Shown one piece after another: positions 3,743 through 19,187 of a stretch of 64,000 bases of DNA. The DNA is from a virus, in the IMG/VR virus record IMGVR_UViG_3300009152_000030, positions 32,001 to 96,000 of that record, one strand, 5' to 3'. Under the pieces are notes generated by a model. That model was not told the origin of the DNA, ran no database searches, and saw nothing but the letters and a program-made list of their open reading frames with translations. How positions within the stretch are numbered: position 1 is the first letter of the stretch; each line of letters begins with the position of its first letter. A program made the translations under genes and the position numbers.

Positions 3743-3788
3743 ACCTCTTTTTGTTGGCTCTGAAATAGAGCGTTAATGTTTTTAACAG

Positions 3789-3863
3789 TGTGCCCGACTG
3801 GACTTGAACCAGTGACCTACGGCTTAGAAGGCCGTTGCAACTATCCAACTGTGCTACGGGCAC
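3789..3863 (-). tRNA. tRNA-Arg(UCU)
   Basis: Minus strand GTGCCCG TA GCAC AGTTGGATAG TTGC A ACGGC CT-TCT-AA GCCGT AGGTC ACTGG TTCAAGT CCAGT CGGGCAC A: full cloverleaf, anticodon TCT, CCA not encoded. Confidence 0.95.
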
Positions 3864-3891: not shown

Positions 3892-4281
3892 TTAGAACGG
3901 ATCAATGTCCGTTACAGTTTCGATGACAGGCTCTGACGACTCTGCCTTCTTAGGGGCCTCACCGTACCGAACTACATCAGCGATGATCTCCGTGATCCAC
4001 CGACGCTCACCTGCTTCGGTCTTGTACTCACGAGTTTCACTGCGACCATCGATTTCTACCTGATGACCTTTACCGAGATACTTTGCAGCATTCTCGGCAT
4101 TGGTGCCAAAGACAACGACGCGATGGTATGAAGGCTTGGAGACCTTCTCACCCTTGGCATTTGTGTACCGATAGTTGGTACAGACGTTGAGAACCGCGCG
4201 CGACTGCGACGATTCGGAGCTCGTAAGCTCGGGATTCTTGGTAAGACGACCACGGACTCTAGACTCATTAAGATCTTGCAT
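3892..4281 (-). CDS. ssb: Single-stranded DNA-binding protein (SSB 1)
   Basis: N.SRVRGRLTKNPEL, YHRVVVFG..AENAAKYLGKGHQVEIDGR, acidic tip DIDPF. Confidence 0.92.
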   Translation of the reverse strand: MQDLNESRVRGRLTKNPELTSSESSQSRAVLNVCTNYRYTNAKGEKVSKPSYHRVVVFGTNAENAAKYLGKGHQVEIDGRSETREYKTEAGERRWITEIIADVVRYGEAPKKAESSEPVIETVTDIDPF

Positions 4282-4341: not shown

Positions 4342-4361
4342 AAGAAAGGGGCGATAGCCCC
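4342..4361 (-). terminator. Intrinsic terminator, copy 1 of GGGGC-TATC-GCCCC-T-rich
   Basis: 5-bp GC stem followed by TTTCTT on minus strand, right after a stop codon. Confidence 0.75.
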
Positions 4362-4893: not shown

Positions 4894-4913
4894 AAAGAAG
4901 GGGCGATAGCCCC
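4894..4913 (-). terminator. Intrinsic terminator, copy 2
   Basis: GGGGCTATCGCCCCTTCTTT on minus strand. Confidence 0.75.
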
Positions 4914-4924
4914 CTCTGGTTTTA

Positions 4925-5105
4925 TAAAGGTTGGGGCCCCTCCCGTTCTATCTCTAGAGGAGAGGGGCCTTTGCGTTCCAGGTTAACCTAGACGTACCAC
5001 CTAGTTATTTTTTGAACTAGGACAGTTGCCCATGATCCAGTGAACCAGATCTGGCAGGACTGTTATGGGAGCCCACCCCCAGCCTATTTGAAGAGTGGCT
5101 GGTCT
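4925..5105 (-). ncRNA. Candidate structured ncRNA (five consecutive hairpins) ending at terminator copy 2
   Basis: Minus-strand stems CCAGCC/GGCTGG, ACAGT..GATC/GATC..ACTGT, CCTAGTT/AACTAGG, CTAGG/CCTGG, GGCCCCTC/GAGGGGCC; no credible ORF. Confidence 0.4.
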
Positions 5106-5435
5106 CTTATTGGGGGTCTAACGCGTTTTTCCCAATTTCTTCTCTCCAGTCGAACTTCCGAGTTTCCTCGATCTCGTTCTGCTTACGCTTATCGCCATGG
5201 TTGGCGTTATGCATATTCTGGAGCTGATAACTCTTGACTTCTTTCTTGTCGAATCTGAAGCTCTTGCTCATTATATCCTACTTACCGATACTGATGGTCC
5301 AACGACCACCAAGGTTGTTTGCGAGAACTACTCCACGGTCCATTGCCGTATCAATATTGTTATACTTCTCATTGATAACAATACCCTTGTTTACGACAAA
5401 CACTCTAAGATTGATATGCTTCATTAGTTTTCTCG

Positions 5436-5891
5436 TTACAGTTTGTGGAGGTAAGTCTCATACTGTTGATTGATGTACCACTCAAAGTTGCGGTCATCAT
5501 CGCCGAGTCCTTGGCGGGAACTTTCGAATTCTCCCATAAGGCGATCCTCATTGGCATCCCACCAGGTTTCCTCAACTACTTTGTTGAGGTATCTGTTCAG
5601 GATCTCTTTGCCGACCTTTGACAGGTCCCTAGAGGTCCATTCACCAAGACCTGTTTCCAGGAATCTACGGTGACCTGTGGCCCACTCCCACATCTGCATG
5701 CAGTTGAAGTAGTTGTCCACGACCACTTTGTAGACTCTCCAATACTCCTGTTGGTCTTTGTAATGCCATCCAGCCGTATCTTTCTCTTCTCGCAAGTCGT
5801 AGTTGACCTTGTTCTCCTCAAGTTTGGGATTGAGGATAGCAAGCACCTTATCCATGTCCTGAACCGTTTCCATTGCAAACTGCTTTTCCAT
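5436..5891 (-). CDS. Hypothetical protein (acidic, Trp/Tyr-rich)
   Basis: 151-aa ORF with GAGG RBS. Confidence 0.75.
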   Translation of the reverse strand: MEKQFAMETVQDMDKVLAILNPKLEENKVNYDLREEKDTAGWHYKDQQEYWRVYKVVVDNYFNCMQMWEWATGHRRFLETGLGEWTSRDLSKVGKEILNRYLNKVVEETWWDANEDRLMGEFESSRQGLGDDDRNFEWYINQQYETYLHKL

Positions 5892-5918
5892 GACAAACCT
5901 CTATATAAGGGGGTAAAA

Positions 5919-6060
5919 GTCTTCCTGACAGGATTCGAACCCATCTATTACCATAAGGAAGTGATGCAGCCTTTGTGGCTACCAGACATGACATCTGATA
6001 GGTTAGCCTACCGACAGGCAGGTTGCAGACTGTTGACCTATTGGACTACTAGGACGAGAC
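5919..6060 (-). ncRNA. tRNA-like RNA (~140 nt) with an expanded central region
   Basis: T-arm ATGGG-TTCGAAT-CCTGT; terminal stem GTCT(CG)TCCT/AGGA-AGAC; D-like TAGTCCAATAGG; internal hairpins GGTAGG-CTAA-CCTATC and AGCC-ACAAA-GGCT; no canonical anticodon arm. Confidence 0.5.
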
Positions 6061-6630
6061 AGAGTTGCCCAGTTCCACCAGGAGATTGTTGAACTCCTCG
6101 ATGGGGCAGTCGGCGTCCTCAATCTTTGTCAGGAGGCTCTTGTGTCCCCAGAAAAGATTGATGAGGCCGTCCATGTCAGCCTTGACGTTCTTGACCGTGA
6201 AGTCAAAGTGCTTCGTCAAGGTGGGGATTGCGGCGTAGAAAGCATACGTCCCTCCAAACCGCTCCGAGTACACTTCCATTGTCGGGATGTGGTACAGGGT
6301 CTCGTTGATCTCCAGAGAGTCACGGAGGCGGATCCTATTGATCTTCGCGCTGACCCACTCCGAGACATATCCGTTTTCGGGATTGGGGAGGCCAATCGTG
6401 AAATTGACCTCGAACCCCTTGTGCGCATCATGGAACATCCCGTGCTCCACAATGTAGTACCCTTCCCCCTCAGCATTGTTGCCCCTGACGGCAGCGCTGA
6501 TCGTGGGGCCGCTGAACTCCGTGAGAGACACAGAGTAGGTGGTGTCGTACCCGAGATGGTTCATCCTCTTGGCGACCTCGGTCGCGAAAAGGATAACGGC
6601 TTCAAAGTCAAAGATCATCTGTTTTTTCAT
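6049..6630 (-). CDS. Hypothetical protein
   Basis: Likely start MKKQMIF (ATG 6630, overlapping upstream stop as ATGA); locally GC-rich codons. Confidence 0.7.
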   Translation of the reverse strand: MKKQMIFDFEAVILFATEVAKRMNHLGYDTTYSVSLTEFSGPTISAAVRGNNAEGEGYYIVEHGMFHDAHKGFEVNFTIGLPNPENGYVSEWVSAKINRIRLRDSLEINETLYHIPTMEVYSERFGGTYAFYAAIPTLTKHFDFTVKNVKADMDGLINLFWGHKSLLTKIEDADCPIEEFNNLLVELGNSVSS

Positions 6631-6788
6631 CTTGTCACCTGTTGGTGGGTGTGGGTAGTGCCTCTGTGCTTGATTGCACAGTCTTTGTGTTGAACTCTCC
6701 AAGTTCCGATGTGACGCTCAAAGTGTCCTTCTTTAGCAGGAACGGTTTTGCCACACCGATAGCAGGTTCCGGGATACTGGTTCCTCAT
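6627..6788 (-). CDS. Small zinc-finger protein
   Basis: MRNQYPGTCYRCGKTV...QHKDC: CxxC...HxxC; GGAG RBS before ATG 6788. Confidence 0.65.
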   Translation of the reverse strand: MRNQYPGTCYRCGKTVPAKEGHFERHIGTWRVQHKDCAIKHRGTTHTHQQVTR

Positions 6789-7000
6789 GAGTTCTCCGAA
6801 TTTTGGATGATAATGTCCTCTTGGAAGAACTCGGCAAAGTGTCTTGCTCCGTGGAACTTCTTGTAGGAGCACACCATGTAACCTGGCTCTTTTCTGAACC
6901 AGAACCCGCACTTCCGAATGCGCTTTTGGATCCGACGCGCTGCAGCTAAGTTAGGGGTTGTATGAAGATAGACGTGAAAGTCAAGGCTTACATGATACAT
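6785..7000 (-). CDS. Hypothetical protein
   Basis: 71-aa ORF with strong AAGGAGG RBS. Confidence 0.65.
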   Translation of the reverse strand: MYHVSLDFHVYLHTTPNLAAARRIQKRIRKCGFWFRKEPGYMVCSYKKFHGARHFAEFFQEDIIIQNSENS

Positions 7001-7020
7001 CTTGTCCTCCTTTAGGACGG

Positions 7021-7107
7021 TGGTAATTCAATCATATGGGAATCGAACCTATAACTATGTACTAGAACCGCAACTGCGGCATACATAGCGTCACCAGACT
7101 GATCAAA
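7021..7107 (-). ncRNA. tRNA-like RNA ending in CCA with a minimal D-arm and an elongated central arm
   Basis: Minus strand TTTGATCA / GTC-TGGT-GAC / GCTATGTA..CCGC-AGTT-GCGG..TACATAGT / ATAGG-TTCGATT-CCCAT / TGATTGAA TTA CCA. Confidence 0.55.
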
Positions 7108-7124
7108 GGCCCGCTGCAGCAGAC

Positions 7125-7487
7125 CACCCATGTCTTTACCTCGGCACTAGTGGCAGGGCTCCACTAGCGACAAAGCCCATGTCTATCTCGTCACTAGTAG
7201 CAGGGCTCTACTAGTAACCACCTCATGTTCATCTTCTCCATTAGTGGCAGGGGTCCACTAACAGCCAGCCCATCGCTATAACCAGGTTTGCAACCCTGAC
7301 TACCTCTAGGTTCCCAATAAGTGGCAGGCTCACCTATGGTTTTTCTAGAGGATTTGAAGCCCATGTTTATCTCGTTACTAGCGGCAGGGCTCCAACTAGT
7401 AACCAGCCTTTTTATATAGCCAGGGTTACAACCCTAACTCTCACTAGGTTCCCATAAGCGGCAGGCGCACTTATGATTGTACTAGTA
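7125..7487 (-). ncRNA. Tandem array of six pseudoknot-forming RNA repeats (four ~47-nt units, two ~85-nt units)
   Basis: Hairpins with conserved loop AGCCCUG/AGCCUGC at 7154, 7201, 7248, 7324, 7385, 7461; compensatory stem changes; G-U wobbles only on minus strand; loop complementary to downstream CA(U)GGGCU. Confidence 0.7.
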
Positions 7488-7501
7488 AACTCTCAAAGGA
7501 T

Positions 7502-7568
7502 GACGTCTTGCAGTACGAACAATAGGGTTTACATCCCCTATTATTCGCAATGTAACCTGCGTGACGCC
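7502..7568. ncRNA. Long irregular hairpin
   Basis: GGCGTC...CGAATAATAGGG-GATGTAAA-CCCTATTGTTCG...GACGTC on minus strand. Confidence 0.4.
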
Positions 7569-7577
7569 GTAAACTTG

Positions 7578-7605
7578 TGAGCATTTTAGAGACCTACTCA
7601 GGTCT
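7578..7605 (-). ncRNA. Compact H-type pseudoknot
   Basis: AGACC-TGAGTA-GGTCT-CTAAAA-TGCTCA: 5-bp stem; 6-nt loop pairs with TGCTCA after an A-rich linker. Confidence 0.5.
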
Positions 7606-7610
7606 GAGGA

Positions 7611-7853
7611 TTATACGAAGAAGCGACGGGCCGTATGCACTGCCTCGATAAGAGAATCAGAGCCAGTGTTGGCGTCGCTCTCGTACTTCTTCTCATCGAG
7701 ACGCTCATTGATGGCATCCCACGGGTCATAAGACTCATGGTTCACGTCATCCAGGCTCAGAGTCTCCTTCTGAACCTCTTCGAAACTATCAGTCAAGATC
7801 GTAGCAGCACTAAACAACATGATATACCTCTTTGCATTGGTAGACATTACCAA
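7611..7853 (-). CDS. Hypothetical acidic protein
   Basis: 80-aa ORF, co-directional with neighbours. Confidence 0.6.
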   Translation of the reverse strand: MVMSTNAKRYIMLFSAATILTDSFEEVQKETLSLDDVNHESYDPWDAINERLDEKKYESDANTGSDSLIEAVHTARRFFV

Positions 7854-7862
7854 TTCTCACCG

Positions 7863-7882
7863 AAAGAAGGGGCGATAGCCCC
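7863..7882 (-). terminator. Intrinsic terminator, copy 3
   Basis: GGGGCTATCGCCCCTTCTTT on minus strand. Confidence 0.75.
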
Positions 7883-8007
7883 TCAGGATTTGTACTGTAG
7901 CGGAGTGGGACCCATAATTATTTGGGCCTATTTTCACTCAGCTGGCCCAGGAGCCGAAACCCCCCGACGCCCGTTAGGGCGAAGGGGGGTTGAGCTGGAC
8001 CTGCGAC

Positions 8008-8430
8008 CTAGAAGGTGCCGTCGTCCGCAGTGGCCGTCTCGCGAAGCGCCGCAAGGGCCTCCGCAGCGGCATCTGCACCAGCGGATGAGGCCGCGGGAGC
8101 CGAAGCGCCAGCGGGGGAGCCAGTCTTGACGACGACGTTGGCGAGGATCTTGACGGCGAAGCCCTTGGAGCCATCCTTGCGGAGGAACTCTTCGTCTTCG
8201 GGGGTTCCGTCCACGAACACGGTGTCGCCCTTCTTGAGGATCTTCGCCATGTTCTCCGCGAGTGCGCCGAAGCACACGACGTCCCGCCACTTCACGACAG
8301 CGACGCCCTTGACCTTGCGGTTGACAGCGACGCGCATGGCGCAGATGGAAGTTCCCGACTGGCCCGTCAGGAGAATAGGGTCGGCTCCAAGGTTGCCGAC
8401 GACCTGAGTACGCTCAAAGCCCATGCTCAT
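8008..8430 (-). CDS. ssb: Single-stranded DNA-binding protein (SSB 2)
   Basis: VVGNLGADP, W.DVVCFGALAENMAKILKKGDTVFVDG, tail ending DDGTF; likely start ATG 8430 after GGAG. Confidence 0.88.
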   Translation of the reverse strand: MSMGFERTQVVGNLGADPILLTGQSGTSICAMRVAVNRKVKGVAVVKWRDVVCFGALAENMAKILKKGDTVFVDGTPEDEEFLRKDGSKGFAVKILANVVVKTGSPAGASAPAASSAGADAAAEALAALRETATADDGTF

Positions 8431-8549
8431 GGGTGCGCTCCAGTGTGGAGAGAAGGACCATCCCTCTCTCCGCACAAACAAGGGCCGTTAGGCCCTCTGG
8501 CGATCCATCTCGTTGGATCAACGGGAGCCAGGACATCTGGACTCCGCAG

Positions 8550-8569
8550 AAAGAAGGGGCGATAGCCCC
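8550..8569 (-). terminator. Intrinsic terminator, copy 4
   Basis: GGGGCTATCGCCCCTTCTTT on minus strand. Confidence 0.75.
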
Positions 8570-8668
8570 CGAGCGAAGCGAGCTCTACAAGCGAAGAACT
8601 AAGGAACAAACGGACGGCGCGAGCGAAGCGAGCGGCAGCGGAGTAATTGGACCTTTTTTGGATGAAAG

Positions 8669-8702
8669 AAAAAAATAGCCCACCCATGATGGGCAGGCTA
8701 TT
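8669..8702 (-). terminator. Intrinsic terminator of the long leftward operon
   Basis: AATAGCCTGCCCA-TCA-TGGGTGGGCTATT-TTTTT immediately after the 8705 stop. Confidence 0.8.
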
Positions 8703-8704
8703 CT

Positions 8705-8998
8705 CTAGTTATTGCCGTTCTTCTTTCTGTTTGCTTCTAGCATTTCCAGAAGACCGCGAGCCATCTTTGCATTGTGCTCATTCTCCTTTTGGGTAACCCA
8801 TTTTGGAGGAGGATCTTTGATGTCAAAGAAGATTTGAATTTCATGGCGAAGTACATAGTAACCTTTGTTGATACGTAAATCAACACAGATCACAACTTCT
8901 CCTGCTCCAACCAACGTCCCGTCCCATGCCCTAATAGTGCCGGTTGGCTTTGGTTTGCGGTTTGTTTCAATGATGTGGCCATTAAATGACTTTTTCAT
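8705..8998 (-). CDS. Hypothetical protein
   Basis: 97-aa ORF, AAGGA RBS, last gene before terminator. Confidence 0.7.
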   Translation of the reverse strand: MKKSFNGHIIETNRKPKPTGTIRAWDGTLVGAGEVVICVDLRINKGYYVLRHEIQIFFDIKDPPPKWVTQKENEHNAKMARGLLEMLEANRKKNGNN

Positions 8999-9033
8999 TG
9001 TTGCCTATTCCTTACGTGCAGTGTTATGTTCTG

Positions 9034-12000
9034 CTACTTCTTTGCAAGGTCGTTCGGGTTGATGATAATCATCGGACGATTGACCTTCTTGGCGTAGTTG
9101 ACACAGTTGGATGTGCCACTCGGAGAACCATCCCAGATTGCGACAACCGCCTCGCAGTTATCAACCATCCAGTAGTTCCGTGCGTGGAGACACTTCTCTT
9201 TGCCTGCAAGGTCGTAGCCTTTCTTATTGACAAGCACAACTTGATGAGCAAGAGCAAGCATCTTCTTGTAACGCATCTTAGCTTCGTCACCCTTGAAGTA
9301 ATCACCATGGTCGCTGCAAGGACGAGCCACGATGAACTTGAGGCCAAGCTTGTGAGCCTCACGTGCGGCATCAGTGTCAACGCCAAGAGCACCACCAGTA
9401 ACGACGATGATCTCACGAGTTGCACTGTACTTGGCAATGGCACGCTTTAATGCATCTGCGATTGCATTCTTTACAGCAACACGCAGAGGATGATTCTCGT
9501 CATAGCCGCCAATCTTTTCGGGGCGATGACCAGTGAATGCAATCCTGTAGGGCTTTGCTTCCACGGCAACAACAGGCACAGCAGGAGCAGGCTTGGCTTC
9601 AACAGCAGGAGCGTCAACCGGGACCCAATTGACATCTGCCATGTTCTTAGGCTGCCACTTGCCGTTGACCATTACAAGTTGTACAGGCTGTGCCGCAGTG
9701 TACGTGCCTTCAAGTACTTCACTGAAGATTTGAGTCTCAGACTCTTCCTCGTCACTGTCGTACTCGCTAGCATACTGCTCCAGCTCTTCAGCGCTGACTG
9801 GATTCTCAGAACCAAAGGCATCTTCAAAGTTGAAGTCTGCCATGCCTGCGCTCTCCAGCATCTTGTCGTAGTCGATATTCTCAGAGACAGAGATATCGAA
9901 GAACTCCTTCTCGGGAGGAGGCTCGGGCTTGACCGGCTCTTGACCCTTGAAGGTCAGCCAGACGAAGTTACGAGTGTAGGTCTTGCCGTTGGCACCATGA
10001 CCGTCACGCTTCTCCACTTCGCTTGCCTCAACGGTAGCACCGCTGAAGAAGTTGTTGAGAGTACCGTGGTAGCCCATCATGCCGGCAATCTGCCACTGAG
10101 TCTTGCCCTTGAAGGCACCGTTGTTCTCGAATGCCTTGCGCGTCTCGCTGGTCTTGCGGAAGACCAAGTAAGCAACTGCGGCGGCGCGATGGTCCTGGTC
10201 AGGGTTACCGCGCTGTCCACCGTATGCAAGCTGAATGCGGTTGTCGCTGAGGAGCTGCTGGATGTTGAGGCCAACAAGCGACTGAGGATCAACAGTCTTG
10301 CCATCCTTGCTCTCACGAATGAGGAAGGCGGCGCGAACGTCGGCAGCAAGAAGCTTATCCTGAGTCTTCTTCACGGCAGCATCCTCAAGGAACTTGCAGA
10401 GAACTTCTGCGTAGCCCTTGTAGTTACCGGTCGAGGCAAAGTACATCTTGCGGCTGTAACCACCGCTGGAGGTAAGCTCACCCTGCGCGTCGATGGCGTC
10501 AGAGTCGATGATCTTTGTCTTGTTGCCTTCTTCGTCATCAAGGAACTCGACCTTACCCTTGCCCATGGACAGAGTAATAGGCTTTTCCGCAGACGTACCG
10601 AGAGCGGACATCAGCTCAGAAAGCACGAACATTTCGTACTTGTACTCAGCCTTATCCTCGTAGACCTCTTCGAAGAGAGGCCAGAGATCCTCGTGACGTG
10701 CTGCGAAGGCTGCATGGATGGGCTTCTGAGCGTAAACCCGACGAAGGGTCTTGAGCTCTTCAGCGTTCATCATGTAGCGAACCTTGTCGATTTCCTCGTA
10801 ACGATGCTTCATTGCCTCAGGCACAGTCATCATGTGACCATTGTCCTGGCTGTAGCGATTGACCGCATGATACTTACGGAACATGAAGGAGCCGAAGGTC
10901 GTGAGATTGAACTCACCCTCGTATTGCTCCTGCTCATCCCGGTAGTGCTTGCTGATCAGCTCATCAAGCTCATGCGAGTGCTCTTCAAGGAACGCCTGAA
11001 GATTGGAGGTCAGGAGAGTAGCAGTCTGAGTGCTGTGACCCTCATCGATGAACGACTTGAGGTTCGAGGTCATCGTCTTCCAGTAGCGTGTGAAGCTGCG
11101 GATGATGGGATGCTCAACCTTGACAGACCGACCATCTGCCGTGACAACCGTCTGACGAAGGCTCTGGCAGATCTTAGCGGTCATCGGGATCTTGCCCTCT
11201 TCGTCCTTGAACAAGGCAGGAGCAATGATGTTCTCGCCCGTGATCTCGGAGATTTCTCCCGTGTAACGCACAGCAACAGGTGCAGTTACAAGCGAAAGAA
11301 GGCTGACACCAAGCCGCTTGCGCACAGGCTTAAGGGCCGTCATCTTGCTAGGCTTAGCATCGGGATTCTCACGCATCGCATTGCGGTCGTTGAGTACCCA
11401 GCTGACAGCAATCATCGTCATGATAGCGTCGATGTTGTGCCATGCACGCCAAGCGCCGGGGAAGTCAGTGCCGCTCTGAGCAGCATCGACCACCAGCGAG
11501 ATCTCACCTTCCATCATGCAAGCTGCAAGAAGGGCGGATGGAGTCTTGACTACCGACGGCAGAATGATCAGGTCAGCAAGCAGATAGCTGCCGAACATCT
11601 GAGCATTTGCCATTGCGCCAACGATGGGCATGAACTCGTTATCACCAGGAAGGTGAATCATGTCCCACTTCTCTTCAGCAGTCTTGTCGGCAACCGAAGG
11701 ATCTGCAGGCTGAGCCTTCTCAGCAAGGGCCGTAATGTTGTACTTGATCAAGCCAGAAGGCGAGACAGTCTCGACCGTCTTGACATCAAAGTACGACGAC
11801 AGCAGCTTGTGACCATTCGGAATGGTGTTCACAAGATCAAGCTTTTCAGGAAGCTTAGCAAGGAAGGTGTGTGCCTTCTCGTAAGTATCCTGGACCTGCT
11901 GAACGGTGAACTGGCTCAGCTTGTAGTTACGCAGGTTCATAGAACGCAGCGCAAGCAAGCCAAGCTTACCGCACAGGAAGAACGCCTTGTCGTCAGCGTC

Positions 12001-13437
12001 ACCGCCGTCCATGCTAACAAGGACAGCCTTCTGCATGATCTCCGTGCTGCCGAAGTATGCAGTAGCGTGCAGGAACATGTCGTCCTTAAGGACAACATAG
12101 ATAACCCGCACATCGACCTTAGCCGAAGTAGGCCAACGAGCCGCAGCGCCAAGGCTATCCCGATGGTTGACGGCAAGCTCCTTCTCGTTCTCACCCTTCA
12201 CATCATGGATGTTAAGAGCAGGAACGTTGAGGTTCTTCGCAGCTTCTGCCGTGATAGCAATTGCCGCAAATCCCGTCTTGGCAAGGATCTGTTCCGACTT
12301 GGCGTTGAACGCTTCCTCGATCTTTGCCTTGCGGTCAAGCTCAGCCATGATGAGAAGACGACGCTTCTTCAGGCCAGCGGTTTCGTTTGCAAAGGCACCC
12401 TGCTTCTCCTCATGGAGCCACAGGTCACGGAACATACGCCAGACAAGAGCGCGGGGATACGAGGTAAAGCCACAAGGGCCGTCCTTTGTAACCGCGTTGA
12501 TGCGAAGCTTGCTCTGCGTAACGTCTTCGCTGACACTGTTGACTAGAGTAGTCACAGTAGCAGGAATTGCGCCAGGGTGAACACCAAGGCTAAGAAGCAT
12601 CTTGGTGATCTTTGCCTTGAATGTTGAGGACGTTTCCGTTGCCTCAAGGACGTCGCCATCGAGACCCTTAAGGGCATTCTTGACGTAGTCATCCCAGTGC
12701 GAGATGTTCCAGTCAATCATCTCGTTGAGGATCGCATGGAACTTCGGGTCGTTGAGCACCTGACCAAACAGGGCGCTCAAGTTCTGGACGCCGAGAAGGA
12801 CACCAGGCTCAGACTTCATCTCACCAACGGTCGGCTGCACCATAAGCGCAACATCGGGAGAGAGATCAGGCTTGAGATCCTGCTTGCCTTCGGAGCTCAG
12901 CAGGAAGACATGGGGCGGAAGCCAAAGCTTGACCGCACCCATTGCGCCCTTATAGTACGCTTCGAGCTTAACCACACGGCGAACCTGCATGCCCTGCGTC
13001 ATGGGGCCAGGGGTGAGCTCTGCAGTGCCCATGTAGTGGACACCGTCCTGGATTGCCTTGTAGGCAGGATCCAAGTCAGCCATGTCTACAACCTTGCCAG
13101 TTGCAGATACGATGGCGCTGTAGGTGGCCGTCATCATGGAACGCGCATACTTGCGGCCCTTCTGAGCGGTCTTGCTGGTATACCCAACAGAACCCACAAG
13201 CTTTGCCTTCAGCGCCTTAGGCACCATCAGCGTCTCCATGCTGCTAACAGCAAAGAGGGCAACGTGACCGTCCGGGCATTTCTGCCCTTTCTCAACCACA
13301 GGGTGGTCGAGGAGGCTTTCAAAGCCCGGAAGATCGGAATAGGGGCTCTTAACCCCGGAATACTCGAGATGCTCTCGATAGCTACGGTACATAGTACCCT
13401 CCTTGTCAGTAACCAAAATGGTTACGTTCTGTTTCAT
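9034..13437 (-). CDS. Putative single-subunit two-barrel RNA polymerase (YonO/eukaryotic RdRP-like) fused to a C-terminal YspA/DUF1273 SLOG domain
   Basis: Ordered motifs QDGVHY (~13045), QVR...YYKG (~12950), RWPT (12127-12138), DGGDADD (11989-12009). SLOG: IAFTGHRP, TGGALGVD, RNYWMVD, WDGSPSGT. Likely start MKQNV (13437). Confidence 0.65.
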   Translation of the reverse strand: MKQNVTILVTDKEGTMYRSYREHLEYSGVKSPYSDLPGFESLLDHPVVEKGQKCPDGHVALFAVSSMETLMVPKALKAKLVGSVGYTSKTAQKGRKYARSMMTATYSAIVSATGKVVDMADLDPAYKAIQDGVHYMGTAELTPGPMTQGMQVRRVVKLEAYYKGAMGAVKLWLPPHVFLLSSEGKQDLKPDLSPDVALMVQPTVGEMKSEPGVLLGVQNLSALFGQVLNDPKFHAILNEMIDWNISHWDDYVKNALKGLDGDVLEATETSSTFKAKITKMLLSLGVHPGAIPATVTTLVNSVSEDVTQSKLRINAVTKDGPCGFTSYPRALVWRMFRDLWLHEEKQGAFANETAGLKKRRLLIMAELDRKAKIEEAFNAKSEQILAKTGFAAIAITAEAAKNLNVPALNIHDVKGENEKELAVNHRDSLGAAARWPTSAKVDVRVIYVVLKDDMFLHATAYFGSTEIMQKAVLVSMDGGDADDKAFFLCGKLGLLALRSMNLRNYKLSQFTVQQVQDTYEKAHTFLAKLPEKLDLVNTIPNGHKLLSSYFDVKTVETVSPSGLIKYNITALAEKAQPADPSVADKTAEEKWDMIHLPGDNEFMPIVGAMANAQMFGSYLLADLIILPSVVKTPSALLAACMMEGEISLVVDAAQSGTDFPGAWRAWHNIDAIMTMIAVSWVLNDRNAMRENPDAKPSKMTALKPVRKRLGVSLLSLVTAPVAVRYTGEISEITGENIIAPALFKDEEGKIPMTAKICQSLRQTVVTADGRSVKVEHPIIRSFTRYWKTMTSNLKSFIDEGHSTQTATLLTSNLQAFLEEHSHELDELISKHYRDEQEQYEGEFNLTTFGSFMFRKYHAVNRYSQDNGHMMTVPEAMKHRYEEIDKVRYMMNAEELKTLRRVYAQKPIHAAFAARHEDLWPLFEEVYEDKAEYKYEMFVLSELMSALGTSAEKPITLSMGKGKVEFLDDEEGNKTKIIDSDAIDAQGELTSSGGYSRKMYFASTGNYKGYAEVLCKFLEDAAVKKTQDKLLAADVRAAFLIRESKDGKTVDPQSLVGLNIQQLLSDNRIQLAYGGQRGNPDQDHRAAAVAYLVFRKTSETRKAFENNGAFKGKTQWQIAGMMGYHGTLNNFFSGATVEASEVEKRDGHGANGKTYTRNFVWLTFKGQEPVKPEPPPEKEFFDISVSENIDYDKMLESAGMADFNFEDAFGSENPVSAEELEQYASEYDSDEEESETQIFSEVLEGTYTAAQPVQLVMVNGKWQPKNMADVNWVPVDAPAVEAKPAPAVPVVAVEAKPYRIAFTGHRPEKIGGYDENHPLRVAVKNAIADALKRAIAKYSATREIIVVTGGALGVDTDAAREAHKLGLKFIVARPCSDHGDYFKGDEAKMRYKKMLALAHQVVLVNKKGYDLAGKEKCLHARNYWMVDNCEAVVAIWDGSPSGTSNCVNYAKKVNRPMIIINPNDLAKK

Positions 13438-13442
13438 GTTTT

Positions 13443-15419
13443 CTACCATTCGCCCATATCCATTGTAACAACAGGAAGAGTCGGAGCAACTACTGATACT
13501 GTCTCCATCTTGAAGCCAGAGTCCCAACCCTCACGAGTTGATGTATGCTTTGAGTTGCAGTCTGTGTAGTTAAGCATTGCACGTTCTTCGGCAGTCATCA
13601 TCCGATGAGGATTAGCTTTTGCAATCTCAGGATGAACCAACATAAAGCCGCACTTGGTCTTCATCCAGTCGTAACCGAAGTCGAAAAAGAGCTTTATCGC
13701 CAGATCTAGTCCGGCTAATTGCTTCCTAGACGAACCCTTCTTGTTGTCCGATACATCCGTCTGCACCATGGACAAACGAAGATTCATGTCGATTTTATCG
13801 AACATGTGAACCTGAGCTCGCAACTCAGAGTTTGCCATTGGTAGTTTTGTCTTCAGCGAGTAGACAGCACGCGAGGCTTTGCTTTCTTGAAGCTCTGCAT
13901 GGTACCGAGCCTTGAATTCCGGGAAAGACAGACCAGCAAGGTGCGGAAGCATCCCATATTCTGTTGTTTCCCACTTTTGACGATACTCGTCTTCGAAGTA
14001 CCCCCAATCCAAGTCCGGACGGTTGCAGTCAGTCCAAAGGGTACCACTCTGCTCATTCGCAAGATTATGCAAGTCATAAGCATACATACCATTACATTCA
14101 CTAGCTTTGAAAAGCTGCAGATACCGTAGCATATGATAATATGCTTGGCTCGTGCTGTCCACATTGGTCAGATAGAACCTTTGGTACCTTTTGTTCTGAG
14201 GTACAGCCTGTTCTACAAAGCCAGTTGCGGTTACCACAACACGATTAACGAGTTCGACTCTAAATACACCCTTGTCGCACAGGTATGTATTCCGAACTGC
14301 TCTTCCACAGGCAAGGTTTTGAATGCAAGTCTTACCAGTTTTTGACCAAGTAAGAACTTCCTCTCTTTTGCCAAAGTGAGCAATCTCGCCACTTTCGTAC
14401 ACGTCAGTGGTTTTTGCAAACTCTGTAATGCGTTCGATTTCCGATACCCATTCGTTATAGGTCATCTTCCGCATCTTGTACCAGGACGTAAGGATCATTC
14501 TGATCCACTTCTCTTCAGGGCCATTGGGGTTGAGTTTGGCCTCTCCAAACACCTGCTTGGCAAGTTGCTCTTCTTGGCCATCCCAGCGGTTTTCATTGCC
14601 AAAGCCCCAGTCAGAGACACCACCGCCAGCAGTCAGGACAAAGCCAAACGAGAACTTATTCCCGTTGCCATCGGTGCCCGTCTTGGCATCTACTGTTTTA
14701 TCAACAATATAGCCGTGGTATTGTCCAGACTTCATCTGCTGTTGATAGGTGCCACCACCAACGCAGAAGTGCCCCTTGTAGCGTGAATTGATGCTCTTGC
14801 ATTCATCCCACGCCTGCTGGGGATCAACCCAGCGGAAGTAATACGTCTCCTTGTTGAAGAGAGCCGTTACTTCACAGGTCTTGAGGGATGCCTCGCCGAT
14901 GACCGCGCCCAGGAACTTGACAGACAAGCTATTCACAAGCTCAACTGTGCTAGTGTACCGATTGCGAACAACGTGCCATTCGGCAGCTGACCATGTTTCA
15001 ATACAATTCTTCTTCTTGGCCAGCTTGGCAATGTCCTGGAAGAAGGTCTCCCAGGTAGGCTCATGAGTAACCTCCTTGAACCAGGCCATCATTTCCTTAT
15101 TGGCAAGGAGGATACTGGCAAACTTGTTGAATGCCGCAACATTCATGACCTTTACCTTGATCACCTTGGTCCGGCCCGTCGGCGGCGACCACTTAACCTG
15201 ACGCTCAGAGCCAAAGCACCGAATGCGGTACATGTCAACTCCCTGCTCCTTTAGAGCAATGATGCGCTTACGCACACTCATCAGGTTTGACAGCGAGAAC
15301 CCAGGCATTTCAGGCTGGATCTCATTGGCAATATATTGCCGCTGTTCGAGACGCATTTGCTTGGCCTTCATAAGGGCCTCCTTCTGTTCGGTGGTCATGT
15401 TTTTGGTCATCTTACTCAT
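13443..15419 (-). CDS. Hypothetical protein with divergent PcfJ-like domain; paralog of 21285-23444
   Basis: WDECKSINSRYKGHFCVGGG...HGY...FGFVLT..GGVSDWGFGNENR shared with the 21285-23444 protein. Confidence 0.6.
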   Translation of the reverse strand: MSKMTKNMTTEQKEALMKAKQMRLEQRQYIANEIQPEMPGFSLSNLMSVRKRIIALKEQGVDMYRIRCFGSERQVKWSPPTGRTKVIKVKVMNVAAFNKFASILLANKEMMAWFKEVTHEPTWETFFQDIAKLAKKKNCIETWSAAEWHVVRNRYTSTVELVNSLSVKFLGAVIGEASLKTCEVTALFNKETYYFRWVDPQQAWDECKSINSRYKGHFCVGGGTYQQQMKSGQYHGYIVDKTVDAKTGTDGNGNKFSFGFVLTAGGGVSDWGFGNENRWDGQEEQLAKQVFGEAKLNPNGPEEKWIRMILTSWYKMRKMTYNEWVSEIERITEFAKTTDVYESGEIAHFGKREEVLTWSKTGKTCIQNLACGRAVRNTYLCDKGVFRVELVNRVVVTATGFVEQAVPQNKRYQRFYLTNVDSTSQAYYHMLRYLQLFKASECNGMYAYDLHNLANEQSGTLWTDCNRPDLDWGYFEDEYRQKWETTEYGMLPHLAGLSFPEFKARYHAELQESKASRAVYSLKTKLPMANSELRAQVHMFDKIDMNLRLSMVQTDVSDNKKGSSRKQLAGLDLAIKLFFDFGYDWMKTKCGFMLVHPEIAKANPHRMMTAEERAMLNYTDCNSKHTSTREGWDSGFKMETVSVVAPTLPVVTMDMGEW

Positions 15420-17854
15420 TGATTTACCCCCTTTGCCACTTTGGCACAGTTAACAATTCCATGATTAATCTTCCGGCTAACTTGGATGTCATTGCGCAGT
15501 TCGGTCTTCTTACCGATCACTACGTCAATGAACAAGTCAGCAGCCTGTTCAATCGTGAGCGCTGTAGGCGCAGGATTGACCGCAGGAAGCAACTCGAACA
15601 GTCGCAGAAGCAAGGAAGGACGCGGCTCTGCGTCGGCCATAGGCACAGTTGCAACCACAGGCTTGCGGAACTTGGCCACAGCCTTGAGGTCAGACATGGT
15701 CACCTGGGCATGCTCACGTGCAGGCGCAGCAGGTCGACCGAACTTCACCACAGCGATCTCCTTCCGGAGGTTGTGAGGAAGCGAGACGAACGAACAGCCG
15801 GTGCCCAGACGGGGCTTGGCGGGTGCGTTGGCGGGTGCGTTGACGGCAGGCTTGACCTCAGCCTTGGGAGCGGCCTCAGGCTTGGTCATGACGACCATAA
15901 CCTTGGCAGCAGCAGGCTTAGCAGTCGGCGCAACCGTGGTGACCGTCGTGATGCCAGCCTTGGCCTTGATCACGGCCTTGACCTTTGCCTTTGCCTTCGC
16001 AGCCTTGGCCTTGCGAGTTGCCGCCTTGGCGCTCTTGGCAGCGCGAGCCTCCGAGAGCTCCTGTGCCTTGCGTGCAGCGATTGCAGCGCGGATTGCCGTG
16101 ACCTTGGCCTTGACGGCCTTCTTCTCGGCGTCCACCTTGGCGAGGACTGCAGCCTGTGCAGCCTTTACCTCGGCTTCGACAGCAAGACGCGCAGCCTTGG
16201 CAGTGGCACTCTGGTTGGCGATCTGGGCAGGGTTCTGATCAGCCCAGCGCACCCCGACCTCATTGACGTTCCAAAAACGGCAGAAGGAGCTGAGCCGTGC
16301 GGCAGCAGCACGACGAGCGGTGCGAACGGTCTTGTCGAGGGTCTTGACCCCCGTGTTCGCCGAACGAGGCCCGAATGCTGCCTTGACGAGGCGGGTGGCA
16401 TCCAAGTAGTCGTTGTTACGGACGACCTTGACCTTTGCGGCGCTCTTGACCACAGGCTTTGCCACGAACGGCTTGGCCTGTGCACGAAGGATGGGAAGCT
16501 CGTTGCGCTTGGCCTTAGCCTTGCGCTGAGCAACCTCGATCTTCACCGCAGTCTCGGGGCGAGTGTAGCGGTTGGCGCGGTTTGCCTTCTTGGCGAGCAG
16601 CTTCCGAAGGGCAGTGCCAGGTCGATTGTTCGCCGGCCCCGTTGCTTTCTCTTTCTGGCGCTGACCAATGAGGCCAATCGACCAGCCGCCGACGTGACCG
16701 CTCTTGCGGCCACCCCCAACCTTGTAGCTCTCGGTGTAGATGTATTGGACCTCGGGGCGGGGGACCGACACGCCGTGGAAGCGGATGCCGGCACGCTTGC
16801 GCCAGAGGTGAAGGAGGCGACGGCGAGACCGGCGGGACATACGAGACTGACGCATGACGAGATCCTTTGGAGGACGGGGGGATTTGGACTTGTTACGCAT
16901 GACGATATCCTTGGGTGGACGGGACTTCTTGTTCTTCATGGGGCGCTCCGTGTAGTGCGGGTTTCCGGTGTCGCTGATGCCACACATTGCGGCAATCTTG
17001 ACATCGTGGGTAAGCATGCGGATGAGTGCGTCGAGCGCGATCTTCATTGCCATTGTAGTCTCCAGTGGCGGTGGGGGTGTTGGTTCAGGTTGGTTCACAA
17101 TCTCACTCATCTTGTCCTCCTCTAGCACATAGACACAACCAGGACCACCTTTTTTGGCATCCCAGTCAATAAGGCGCACATGATCCCAAGAGCATTGCCC
17201 CTGAGGAATCTTTGAACGACGAGTATGACCAACAATAGCAAGCCCGTGCTTACCCTTGTAATCTTTGGCCCAGAAGTTATCAGGGTCAGTGTTATCAACA
17301 AGCTCGATCTGGGCTGCAGTCGGCTTACCTTTGACAAACCTAGGAGGCAATTTACCAGCTGGAAGTTTGGCATGGACAGCCGTCCAGGTTGTGTCCTTGA
17401 CCCATAGAGGCCGAGAGCGCAACCAGACCATATCGTCCTCCGTAAGTAGAGCACGAAGCTTGCACCACTCATTCCAGATGCGTACATAGTCTTCGTCTGC
17501 CAGGTTATAGTGCAGGCTCCAAGCCTTTGTCAATTCTTCCTGGCTATTGCCAAAGAAGAGAGGATACAGCTCATGGTTGCCCAAGATGAGCTCCGAGCCA
17601 GAGGCACGAATGATGTCAAGGCAATCCTTGGCACCCTGTGCGCCACCTTCCCCATCGAAGATATCTCCGAGGAAGATAATGTCTCTGCCGTTTGCCATCT
17701 CAATGGCAGAAGTGACGAGAGAGGGACGTGCGTGAATATCGCCAACGAAAACCTTTTCCATTTTAATCTCCTTGGTAGGCCTATCAATCTTCATATCATT
17801 CATTGGAACAACCTTTGTAATAGTACAAATAGATACATTCATTTGCTTATCCAT
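15416..17854 (-). CDS. Calcineurin-like (PPP) metallophosphoesterase fused to a long Lys/Arg/Ala-rich histone-H1-like region
   Basis: GDIH, GDIFD, GNHE, VHA, GHT motifs in the first ~255 aa; then very basic AK-rich low-complexity sequence; start ATG 17854 (GGAG) or 17761 (AAGGAG). Confidence 0.8.
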   Translation of the reverse strand: MDKQMNVSICTITKVVPMNDMKIDRPTKEIKMEKVFVGDIHARPSLVTSAIEMANGRDIIFLGDIFDGEGGAQGAKDCLDIIRASGSELILGNHELYPLFFGNSQEELTKAWSLHYNLADEDYVRIWNEWCKLRALLTEDDMVWLRSRPLWVKDTTWTAVHAKLPAGKLPPRFVKGKPTAAQIELVDNTDPDNFWAKDYKGKHGLAIVGHTRRSKIPQGQCSWDHVRLIDWDAKKGGPGCVYVLEEDKMSEIVNQPEPTPPPPLETTMAMKIALDALIRMLTHDVKIAAMCGISDTGNPHYTERPMKNKKSRPPKDIVMRNKSKSPRPPKDLVMRQSRMSRRSRRRLLHLWRKRAGIRFHGVSVPRPEVQYIYTESYKVGGGRKSGHVGGWSIGLIGQRQKEKATGPANNRPGTALRKLLAKKANRANRYTRPETAVKIEVAQRKAKAKRNELPILRAQAKPFVAKPVVKSAAKVKVVRNNDYLDATRLVKAAFGPRSANTGVKTLDKTVRTARRAAAARLSSFCRFWNVNEVGVRWADQNPAQIANQSATAKAARLAVEAEVKAAQAAVLAKVDAEKKAVKAKVTAIRAAIAARKAQELSEARAAKSAKAATRKAKAAKAKAKVKAVIKAKAGITTVTTVAPTAKPAAAKVMVVMTKPEAAPKAEVKPAVNAPANAPAKPRLGTGCSFVSLPHNLRKEIAVVKFGRPAAPAREHAQVTMSDLKAVAKFRKPVVATVPMADAEPRPSLLLRLFELLPAVNPAPTALTIEQAADLFIDVVIGKKTELRNDIQVSRKINHGIVNCAKVAKGVNQ

Positions 17855-17871
17855 GACGTTCTCCCTAGGCA

Positions 17872-18042
17872 CTAGTGGATACGCCGGCCAATGCGGCCGA
17901 TGCGGGAGTGACGGAAACGGCGAGCCACTGCCTTCTTGACAGCAGCCTTTTCAATAGCCTTGGCCTCAGCGTTAGCTGCAACCTTGGCGGTCATCTCCCC
18001 CTTAATAAGGAGGAAAATTAGGACAAACAGGACGACAATCAT
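17872..18042 (-). CDS. Small membrane-anchored basic peptide (56 aa; not in ORF track)
   Basis: MIVVLFVLIFLLIKGEMTAKVAANAEAKAIEKAAVKKAVARRFRHSRIGRIGRRIH*; fills the gap between two coupled genes. Confidence 0.55.
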   Translation of the reverse strand: MIVVLFVLIFLLIKGEMTAKVAANAEAKAIEKAAVKKAVARRFRHSRIGRIGRRIH

Positions 18043-18043
18043 G

Positions 18044-19138
18044 TTACTTCTCCCAGTTGCTGATAGTCTCCTGCCCGTATTTAAGCAGGAACTGTTGATA
18101 AAGGTCCTTGTACCATTCCATGTTTTCCTTGGCGTAAGCCAGGTTTACCGTATCCTTGCTGCGGTCCAAGCTACCCCAGCAGTCAGTTTGGCCAATGTAC
18201 AAGGCATCATTGTACTTGACTTGAAAGTCTTCAGCATCACCTGTGCCAAGGGCTTGGCGCTGAGGGCTTTCCGCATAAGATACGAAGCCAATCACTTCAT
18301 CGCCGGCCATCAAAGGCCCACCAGAGTCACCATGGTCAGGAGAAACTTCAAGGCTGAGGCTGGCAGCACAGATAAAGCGTTGGTTGCTAGCGCCTGCAAT
18401 GTACCTCTTGTAGGTATCAACAAGATTCTTGAAGATAACCTCGGGGCTTTTCAGACTTACATCCTCAAGTGCTTTTCTGGCATCAATGAATGCCCATCTC
18501 ATGTCATTCTGCTCTTTCATGCTAGGCGTACCCTTCTTCATGTGGTCAAAGACCTGCTCAAAAGGCACATAACCCCACATGTCTGTGGTCTTACCCCACC
18601 AACGGAAGTCAGTGCTGCACTCAAGACCAATCTCATAGAGATCTTCCTTGATTTCGTTAGGATAATGGTCAGCCGGCACAACGATATCGCCAGCGTTTTC
18701 ACGGTAACCGTTACGTGTGCAGTGCTCTGCCGTGTAGATCTTACCTTTCCACTTCCATGCAGTGCAGTTCCCGCTCTCATCAAGGGGGCCTTCATTTTCC
18801 CTGGTGTTGACAGGACCAATTCCAGGGTGGATGTTGTTCTCTGCCCGGTACTTCTCTTCCAGGAATTCTTCCACTTCCTGAACAACCTCGTAATAGTCGC
18901 TGTTAGCAACCCACTCTGCCTGACGGATTTCCTCCTTCCGTGCCGCAGCAGCTTCTTCCTGGCGAAGGCGGGTGTTATTACCCGTCATGGTCACAAAGAT
19001 ACCAGCAAAGGCTGCAAAGATTGCAACCATTGCCAGCACAAAGAGGATGTTCTCGCGGCGGTCTGCCTTCTTCATCTTGTCCTCCCTCTCACGGTACGCC
19101 TTAAGCTCGGCCTGTTGCATTTCTTCCCAGTTGTCCAT
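18044..19138 (-). CDS. Membrane-anchored trypsin-like (S1/PA clan) serine protease 1
   Basis: TM helix ILFVLAMVAIFAAFAGIFV; GNCTAW...YTAEHC and GDSGGPL...IGFVS; start ATG 19138 (AAGGAG) or 19195. Confidence 0.75.
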   Translation of the reverse strand: MDNWEEMQQAELKAYREREDKMKKADRRENILFVLAMVAIFAAFAGIFVTMTGNNTRLRQEEAAAARKEEIRQAEWVANSDYYEVVQEVEEFLEEKYRAENNIHPGIGPVNTRENEGPLDESGNCTAWKWKGKIYTAEHCTRNGYRENAGDIVVPADHYPNEIKEDLYEIGLECSTDFRWWGKTTDMWGYVPFEQVFDHMKKGTPSMKEQNDMRWAFIDARKALEDVSLKSPEVIFKNLVDTYKRYIAGASNQRFICAASLSLEVSPDHGDSGGPLMAGDEVIGFVSYAESPQRQALGTGDAEDFQVKYNDALYIGQTDCWGSLDRSKDTVNLAYAKENMEWYKDLYQQFLLKYGQETISNWEK

Positions 19139-19187
19139 GACCTTCTCCTTGTTTGTTGAGTTAGCAGCAATGTCTAGAACAGTAACG

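Follow-up and report, generated by a model that had tools for sequence, protein, structure and literature searches.

The window analysed here is a stretch of 64,000 nt that comprises bases 32001-96000 of the 174,117-bp IMG/VR virus record IMGVR_UViG_3300009152_000030, which is rated 100% complete by CheckV. At the locus under study the gene for a putative two-barrel (double-psi beta-barrel) RNA polymerase (RNAP) of 1497 amino acids (9034..13527, minus strand), assigned from a structural model and structure search, is followed 1.5 to 4 kb downstream by structured RNAs. These are RNA-1, a modular RNA of about 555 nt (7575..7021, minus strand) made up of a 5' domain, an array of two B modules and four 47-nt units, and a tRNA-like end; a further tRNA-like RNA, called RNA 2 (5915..6040, minus strand); and a third structured element (4925..5100, minus strand). 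According to the list of open reading frames (ORFs), every gene between 3000 and 23500 is encoded on the minus strand, so that coordinates fall from the polymerase towards the genes and RNAs downstream of it. This confirms the shared strand of the polymerase, the RNAs and two genes for single-stranded DNA-binding proteins (SSBs) that an original prediction, made from the sequence of the window, had claimed. The same prediction proposed, as a speculation, that the RNA could be a dedicated template, cofactor or product of the enzyme. The results described below uphold the enzyme and the RNAs; from the comparison of related phages, however, they look like neighbours by synteny and not like a dedicated enzyme-template pair.

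The sequence of the polymerase gives few hints to its function. Amino acids 1-1300 have no match in Pfam or PHROG at E 0.01, the core (amino acids ~27-1200) has no sequence match among PDB entries, and membership in a curated polymerase family (Pfam RdRP, Rpb1/Rpb2 domains) was not found by sequence. The C-terminus is a YpsA-type SLOG domain (amino acids 1329-1494), which is matched by PF06908 over the full profile length with 45.4 bits versus a gathering cut-off of 27.7. It belongs to the YpsA family, and tblastn retrieved stand-alone phage homologues of it, including yoqJ of SPbeta; in 50,697 phage records the polymerase was matched by its SLOG end only. Three close relatives of the polymerase are present in an index of 5.8 billion proteins, and the family has 11 cluster representatives among 1.8 billion. 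An alignment of the distant homologues of about 1100 amino acids was scanned against viral contigs and species genomes, and no locus was found. The phage genome contains no detected paralogue of the polymerase and none of the multisubunit RNAP domains PF00623 and PF00562.

The assignment is carried by the predicted fold. An AlphaFold2 model of amino acids 27-1226, calculated from an alignment of 14 rows, was unexpectedly confident (predicted local distance difference test 83, predicted template modelling score 0.77). The best match in a Foldseek search of the PDB was QDE-1 of Neurospora (E 3e-5, probability 1.0), followed by RDR2 of maize and Arabidopsis, gp62 of Thermus phage P74, gp64 of Thermus phage P32, gp66 of the crAss-like phage phi14:2, and Rpb1 of Pol II. 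VIA-align yielded Z scores of 12.1 for maize RDR2 (ZmRDR2), 10.3 for P32 gp64, 10.0 for P74 gp62, and 9.4-9.9 for QDE-1 over 330-600 residues, and the structure matches in BFVD, also two-barrel RNAPs, agree with those in the PDB. Two-barrel RNAPs were the sole matches over about 400-600 residues, and the predicted presence of a polymerase resembling RNA-dependent RNA polymerases (RdRPs) or YonO is thus borne out at the level of the modelled fold. A separate match to a double-psi beta-barrel (model residues ~318-500, Z 7.8) was aligned by VIA to residues 357-523 of Rpb1, which we take to be the range with the NADFDGD loop. The barrel segment aligned to this range contains GGDxDD (here DGGDADD), the only long invariant motif, which is present in 14/14 family members and includes the invariant residues G482, D484, D486 and D487 (numbering of alignment A2). 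It has three acidic residues in DxDD spacing versus the canonical DxDxD of the metal loop, as compared by segment alignment. Other C-termini in the family are SLOG (P0012) and a PIF1-type helicase (P0013), both DNA-oriented fusion partners, and the members of about 1100 amino acids (P0005-P0011) are devoid of any Pfam domain.

Two groups of known enzymes invite comparison. YonO and the single-chain RNAPs of Thermus phages (P74 gp62, P32 gp64, P23-45) are likewise phage-encoded and have both double-psi beta-barrels in one polypeptide, and the Thermus-phage enzymes align to the polymerase model at a Z of about 10 over about 400 residues. In contrast to them, the polymerase described here is bigger, has GGDxDD instead of DxDxD and a C-terminal SLOG domain, and shares no detectable sequence similarity with them. 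The eukaryotic RdRPs QDE-1 and RDR2 are the best overall structural matches (Foldseek E 3e-5; VIA Z 9.4-12.1), but the identity is about 10%, a Pfam polymerase-family match is lacking and the genome is double-stranded DNA; the resemblance is one of predicted fold. YonO is a strictly DNA-dependent RNAP that transcribes the late genes of SPbeta (PMC5467207). By analogy, the polymerase is most likely the phage's own DNA-dependent transcriptase, a role that the structurally matched RNAPs of Thermus phages presumably also have in their phages.

For the analysis of the RNAs, relatives were gathered by protein and by DNA patterns, and covariation was counted on them. Across the relatives homology extends over the entire non-coding stretch, which has a modular make-up, no Rfam family matches the RNA-1 elements in the window, and blastn of 4900-9100 against phage records returned no match. 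In the 5' domain of RNA-1 (7497..7575, minus strand) the helices P1 and P2 enclose the 14-bp helix P4. In an alignment of seven sequences (A8) 96.2% of the cells are paired, eight pairs are doubly changed, essentially in one divergent lineage (L002/L033), and 0/500 shuffles reached the score. The 8-nt loop of P4 is complementary to the 6 nt that directly precede this helix, which would create, within 7555-7509, a pseudoknot-type helix P3, of which one pair covaries. Because P3 and P4 are joined without a linker, they were judged unable to coexist in one molecule, which suggests that they are alternative folds, i.e., a conformational switch, or that P3 is a contact between molecules.

The 5' domain is followed by the module array B-C-B-C-C-C (7125..7477, minus strand) with two B modules of about 90 nt and four C units of 47 nt (7404-7357, 7266-7218, 7219-7172 and 7172-7125, minus strand); the 5' strand of the outer stem of the first B module extends to ~7488. 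The B module consists of an outer stem around a hairpin with the loop (C/A)GCCUGC, a fold that is independently predicted by RNAalifold and has five pairs that are changed on both sides. The C unit consists of a 10-bp stem, the loop AGCCCUG, a purine-rich linker and then CAUGGGCU. Among 19 distinct C units from six loci 91.5% of the cells are paired, which 0/500 shuffles matched; the pairs were counted on the MAFFT alignment A4, in which four rows are slightly misaligned, and the figures are therefore conservative. The pair 16:50 between loop and tail is GC in eight units, CG in six and UG in one, and this covariation supports an H-type pseudoknot. The conserved loop GCCCUGCC and linker ACGAGAUAAACAUGGG are repeated four to six times on covarying stems, and the number and order of the modules vary among near-identical phages. 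The predicted array of six units is therefore well founded. G-U pairs are common in the helices of the C units and the 5' domain on the minus strand and would be A-C mismatches on the plus strand, so that the fold of RNA-1 is specific for the minus-strand transcript. Two other types of repeated elements were rejected by eye, namely a CRISPR-like mini-array, as the period is 47 nt, the entire unit is conserved and variable spacers are lacking, and a CsrB-type sponge, as GGA loops are lacking.

The 3' end of RNA-1 is formed by tRNA-like module 1 (7021..7108, minus strand; alignment A7), which has an acceptor stem of 8 bp, a D arm (GUC-UGGU-GAC) and a 6-bp T arm with the loop UUCGAUU. The acceptor stem is 100% paired in nine sequences and has three doubly changed pairs, 20/72 cells are G-U pairs, and the D and T arms are kept. 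At the position of the anticodon arm there is a variable hairpin, with at least four unrelated inserts among the relatives. The module has the hallmarks of a tRNA-like structure, i.e., an acceptor stem stacked on the T arm, the GGUUCGAWUCC loop and the GG of the D-loop, and it is not a canonical tRNA, as ARAGORN and the Rfam model RF00005 called only the tRNA-Arg discussed below. In two relatives (L031 1174-1365, minus strand; L036 3215-3406) the anticodon arm is replaced by an insert of about 120 nt that contains a further T-arm-like hairpin, GGGTTCAATCCCC. The insert-bearing module of L031 is followed downstream by another series of B and C modules, which has a tRNA-like module of its own at its end. 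A G3:U70 wobble (counted for a 7-bp acceptor stem) occurs in 7/9 tRNA-like modules, the exceptions being L003 and L034, and A73 in 9/9. G3:U70 and A73 are alanine identity elements that are common to transfer-messenger RNA (tmRNA).

The proposed role as a template had been built on the CCA end of this module, which was compared with the tRNA-like initiation sites of viral RdRPs and retroplasmid reverse transcriptases. In fact the acceptor stem and the invariant A are followed by UUA and only then by CCA, which is 3 nt out of register. The relatives have UUACUU, UCACAU or UUACUA at this place, with UUA or UCA at positions 74-76. The CCA in register after the discriminator that characterizes viral and retroplasmid 3' initiation sites is missing, the out-of-register CCA is found in this phage alone, and, as judged from the relatives, it is a coincidence of a single genome.

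RNA 2 contains three hairpins and, downstream of them, a minimal acceptor/T-arm helix (CUUCCU/AGGAAG) with the T arm GGUUCGAAUCC and a GG-containing D-loop mimic. It is 79-98% identical in all relatives, and three helices have compensatory changes in an alignment of eight loci (A6). Both tRNA-like RNAs of the original prediction (7108-7021 and 6040-5915) thus exhibit covariation. The third element (5100-4925), which had been described as five hairpins, ends in a G+C-rich terminator-like hairpin. It is conserved as far as L004, and RNAalifold predicted 54 pairs from four loci, three of which are doubly changed; the element can therefore be regarded as conserved, with slight covariation. Taken together, covariation demonstrates that the RNA adopts the predicted folds, including the pseudoknots and the tRNA-like architecture of acceptor, D and T arms.

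The architecture of RNA-1 is reminiscent of tmRNA, of the upstream pseudoknot domain and tRNA-like structure of tobacco mosaic virus, and of MALAT1-mascRNA. In these systems with a tRNA-like handle a run of pseudoknots likewise lies beside a tRNA-shaped acceptor/T-arm domain, and the D-loop mimic UCUGG..GAC of module 1 resembles that of tmRNA. However, tmRNA was rejected, because ARAGORN detected none in the window or in eight related loci and a tag reading frame is lacking. Moreover, the acceptor strands are adjacent and not split as in tmRNA, being divided merely by the D arm, the small insert and the T arm, and there is no conserved CCA. Unlike viral tRNA-like ends, RNA-1 is part of an operon of a double-stranded DNA phage and not a genome end.

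Contigs that cover the array were found in three metatranscriptome runs from three lake studies. One of them (X22) is a 377-nt contig that is 100% identical to 7101-7477. In another (X24) the word depth is 54-121 over 7139-7500, the coding flanks up to 3881 have 0-8, and the bin of the tRNA-Arg reaches 24. The depth of the array in metatranscriptome contigs is 10-fold or more above that of the coding flanks, and a DNA run of a relative does not exhibit such an enrichment. In X23 and X24, from two studies, the Illumina adapter is directly joined at 7477/7476, which shows that a discrete RNA end exists within the first B module, in its internal loop; for a minus-strand transcript this is the 5' terminus. 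A primary promoter for this end was rejected by eye. The sole good -10-like hexamer, TACAAT (7481-7476), overlaps the end itself, which is therefore read as a processing site, and a sigma-70 scan yielded no minus-strand site for it. The end of the X22 contig at 7101 was also rejected as an RNA end; it coincides with a C/T variant site among the relatives and is read as an assembly break. The RNA contigs hardly reach into the region of the 5' domain (7501-7681), which does not mean that it is absent from the RNA. A 236-nt contig from the RNA library X23 connects 7129 with 7415 through 51 nt of different sequence and continues into an insert-bearing module of the L031 type; the variant module orders of relatives thus also occur in RNA libraries.

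How tightly are polymerase and RNAs linked? Wherever the upstream DNA of a locus is long enough, a homologue of the polymerase is encoded on the same strand at a distance of 2-5 kb ahead of the RNA; all these loci belong to related phages. Polymerase homologue and RNA, whose co-occurrence the original prediction had proposed as a check, have the same order and strand in all checkable loci. L003 has a polymerase that is 97% identical to the one described here and lacks the 5' domain and the array. Conversely, L033, L045 and L049 contain the array or the 5' domain together with RNA 2 at 79-99% nucleotide identity, and their polymerases are only 23% identical to the one described here. The RNA elements are the best-conserved sequences of the region (78-99% nucleotide identity). 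The neighbouring proteins in distant relatives have 23-66% amino-acid identity or are unmatched, and a few shared mosaic genes reach 83-89%. The SSBs are 32-47% identical between phages with 78-99% identical RNAs (L004, L005, L033, L045). The conservation of the RNAs reflects either very strong purifying selection or a recent exchange of an RNA cassette between phages. The partners of a specific enzyme-template pair should co-vary. Polymerase and RNA do not, and they are therefore regarded as neighbours and not as one system. A dedicated template, cofactor or product is not supported, as the CCA is not conserved, polymerase and RNA are decoupled and YonO is DNA-dependent; co-location in an early region, which the original prediction had named as its simpler alternative, fits best.

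The gene block around the polymerase is best read as an early/middle block of an uncultured 174-kb freshwater myophage. The assignment to the myoviruses is based on a large terminase and a tail sheath in the 174,117-bp genome, and the runs with DNA of this phage are lake and freshwater metagenomes. Between polymerase and RNA-1 there are three genes on the minus strand. The first encodes a protein of 97 amino acids without assigned function (8705..8998), for which no match was found in Pfam or PHROG and which is followed by a strong intrinsic terminator (8706-8670; a 17-pair stem and T7 in the terminator scan). It is followed by SSB1 (8008..8481; Pfam SSB 4e-17, PHROG 44; likely start ATG 8430) and by orf80 (7611..7853), which encodes a small acidic protein and was delineated from the ORF list and the relatives; its homologues stand ahead of the RNA in L002, L003, L005 and L033. 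Further downstream lie SSB2 (3892..4281, minus strand; Pfam SSB 1.1e-21) and a genuine tRNA-Arg(TCT) gene (3788..3863, minus strand), which is called by ARAGORN and Rfam and keeps its place in the relatives. The two SSBs and the tRNA-Arg agree with the original prediction. Two genes upstream of the polymerase, an 818-amino-acid ORF (15416-17872, minus strand) has a calcineurin-like phosphoesterase domain at its N-terminus and a long tail rich in Lys and Ala. Six more genuine tRNA genes lie beyond the 64-kb window (genome positions 17949-20651 and 158399-158472). In the phage tRNA genes whose 3' ends were read (Tyr, Thr, Asn) CCA is missing, so that it must be added by the host.

A hairpin with the sequence GGGGCTATCGCCCC and a T-rich tail occurs in four copies in the 174-kb genome, all of them in this region and on the coding strand. 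The identity of the copies had been recognized in the original prediction, but the role as terminators that it had assigned to them is doubtful, because all four lie upstream of genes, 25-130 nt ahead of the starts of SSB1, orf80, a small ORF and SSB2, and 3/4 come after a separate terminator-like hairpin. Copy 1 (GGGGCUAUCGCCCC and a U-rich tail; 8556..8569, minus strand) lies about 125 nt upstream of SSB1 and is preceded by ACTCCGCT and two GCTCGCTTCGCTCG boxes. Copy 2 (7869..7882, minus strand) lies about 20 nt upstream of the start of orf80 and about 75 nt after the terminator-like hairpin that trails SSB1. Copy 3 (4900..4913, minus strand) precedes the ribosome-binding site of the small ORF by about 20 nt, and copy 4 (4348..4361, minus strand) lies about 65 nt upstream of SSB2. 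A terminator shape fits copies 1 and 3; of the separate terminator-like hairpins, the terminator scan scored only the one at 8706-8670. L002 and L003 contain five copies each, two of them ahead of SSB1. In L004 a different motif, CCTCCTKCGTCGG, occurs seven times (5831-9840), including directly ahead of RNA-1 and RNA 2, and in L049 CTCGCTGCGCTCG is found (15452-20481) at equivalent places ahead of early genes. Three phage clades thus have three different motifs (GGGGCTATCGCCCC with its T-run and, not of terminator type, CCTCCTKCGTCGG and CTCGCTGCGCTCG) at equivalent places, and on the basis of these positions we read the GGGGCTATCGCCCC hairpins as putative clade-specific promoter or 5'-leader elements rather than as terminators. 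The clade motifs could be promoters matched to clade-specific polymerases, or leader or processing sites at the RNA level. On visual inspection the flanks of CCTCCTKCGTCGG seem able to pair if G-T is admitted, which applies to the coding strand alone. ACTCCGCT was rejected as a genome-wide promoter; it has four copies in the genome, two of them in this region.

The account that we favour, with somewhat better than even confidence, is that the phage encodes its own DNA-dependent transcriptase beside a stable, processed, multivalent non-coding RNA, and that the two are neighbours and not an enzyme-template pair. The repeated loop and linker, together with a closing module that tRNA-processing enzymes of the host should recognize, point to a processed, stable and multivalent RNA that would act in trans. 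RNA-1 would be released from a longer precursor transcript, with endonucleolytic cleavage at 7477. By analogy with other tRNA-like structures, the tRNA-like module may be a handle for RNase P, RNase Z and CCA-adding enzymes of the host and/or a protective 3' cap. The RNA would accumulate and act as a multivalent binder; its repeated loop and linker would suit a sponge, a decoy or a scaffold for a protein or for the RNA itself.

Several points weigh against this account. The constant synteny of polymerase and RNA leaves room for a functional tie. The catalytic loop in the model is DxDD and not the canonical DxDxD, which makes the polymerase activity putative. Cleavage by RNase P and RNase Z, which is assumed by analogy, and a binding partner of RNA-1 are likewise putative. 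The 5' domain is conserved and covarying, yet it is barely covered by RNA contigs, which the account leaves unexplained. Finally, the RNA data are Logan contigs, which give no strand, 3' end or true abundance and may include carry-over of DNA.

Of the other explanations, a function in anti-defence fares best, although we think it unlikely. The array would mimic a host RNA that restrains a toxin or nuclease, or the anticodon-less tRNA look-alikes would soak up defence enzymes that target tRNAs. There is a precedent in phage PhiTE, whose pseudo-ToxI repeats neutralise the endoribonuclease ToxN and expand from 1.5 to 4.5-5.5 repeats (PMC3475682). ToxI arrays and the PhiTE copy, which varies in number and is expressed during infection (PMC3475682), likewise consist of tandem short pseudoknot repeats, and the four C units, tandem H-type pseudoknots of ~47 nt with a covarying pseudoknot pair and a conserved loop and linker, have this type of organisation. 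As with the expansion of pseudo-ToxI (PMC3475682), copy number and module order vary in near-identical phages. The location in an early region, the high depth in RNA libraries, and the retention of acceptor, D and T arms with an anticodon arm swapped for unrelated hairpins would also fit. However, the units are 47 nt versus 36 nt in ToxI, and they are diverged and covarying, in contrast to the near-identical ToxI repeats. Neither a ToxN-like protein nor another toxin family was found in Pfam and PHROG searches of the tested neighbouring ORFs. A scan of 185,579 species genomes with a narrow pattern of the unit produced 16 single hits, 0 of which were scored by the covariance model of the unit and which are taken to be due to chance, so that no cellular counterpart was found with this pattern; the host of the phage was not identified.

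It is rather improbable that RNA-1 is a self-assembling ornate RNA of the GOLLD/ROOL type, i.e., a scaffold or cage of multimers with covalently linked tRNA-like ends. Phages encode GOLLD and ROOL near tRNA genes, sometimes linked to a tRNA; these RNAs are abundant and form RNA-only cages (10.1101/2024.12.08.627333). RNA-1 shares with them a length of several hundred nt, the richness in pseudoknots, the proximity to a tRNA gene, here that of tRNA-Arg, and the lack of an assigned function, and it is a large, ornate and modular RNA from lake samples with a tRNA-like end. The linkerless P3 pairing, which was judged hard within one molecule, could act between molecules. But the Rfam models of GOLLD and ROOL gave no match, neither at the gathering cut-off nor with E relaxed to 5, the 5' domain is barely covered by RNA contigs, and oligomers of RNA-1 are hypothetical. 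In addition, RNA-1 is an assembly of interchangeable modules that recur, and at its end stands a tRNA mimic instead of a true tRNA.

An equally doubtful explanation is that the structured blocks and tRNA-like ends are cis-acting leaders that control the processing, stability or translation of the genes 10-25 nt after them. A ribosome-binding site follows each tRNA-like module within 10-25 nt, the trailer GUCCU-AAAGG-AGGAC can hide the Shine-Dalgarno sequence in this phage, and in the L004 clade a separate copy of the promoter-like motif stands ahead of each RNA, just as for the small genes. However, the next gene changes (orf71 here, a zinc-ribbon ORF in L002 and L003, others in L004 and L005) and the RNA stays, the depth of the array far exceeds that of the downstream mRNA, and about 500 nt of repeated modules are excessive for a leader.

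The proposal that the tRNA-ended RNA is a template, primer or cofactor for the two-barrel polymerase, i.e., RNA-dependent synthesis in a DNA phage, must be regarded as very improbable. It can draw on the true RNA-dependent enzymes QDE-1 and RDR2 among the best structural matches, on order and strand, which are constant in all checkable loci, and on the non-canonical catalytic loop. Against it stand the CCA, which is neither conserved nor in register, the combination of 23% identical polymerases with 79-99% identical RNAs and of a 97% identical polymerase with a missing array, the strict DNA dependence of YonO (PMC5467207), and the DNA-oriented fusion partners of the family (SLOG/DprA-like, PIF1 helicase). 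That a double-stranded DNA phage copies or extends its own tRNA-ended pseudoknot RNA with a QDE-1/RDR-like DxDD polymerase is just as far-fetched; if it were true, the phage would produce antisense or double-stranded RNA that plays a part in infection, and its polymerase system would be the first of the two-barrel type in bacteriophages to work on an RNA template. An element at the level of DNA, such as iterons, a replication origin or single-stranded DNA hairpins bound with the aid of the two SSBs, can practically be dismissed in spite of the non-coding direct repeats with internal dyad symmetry between replication-type genes (the two SSBs), given the compensatory changes in stems, the fixed loops, the covarying pseudoknot pair, the G-U pairs that allow the fold on one strand, and RNA libraries that yield the array and not its flanks.

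The favoured account of a phage transcriptase beside a trans-acting RNA has several implications. The negative result for the enzyme-template pair matters, because the idea of an RdRP with its own template is supported by synteny alone. The RNAs represent a modular family built of interchangeable pseudoknot modules that are closed by tRNA mimics, and this family joins GOLLD and ROOL as large phage RNAs without assigned function. The putative polymerase enlarges the small set of single-chain two-barrel RNAPs of phages by a branch that is visible by structure prediction alone. Its altered metal-binding loop and its variable DNA-oriented partners bear on the evolution of minimal two-barrel polymerases, and the branch bears on the question of how large uncultured phages transcribe their own genes.

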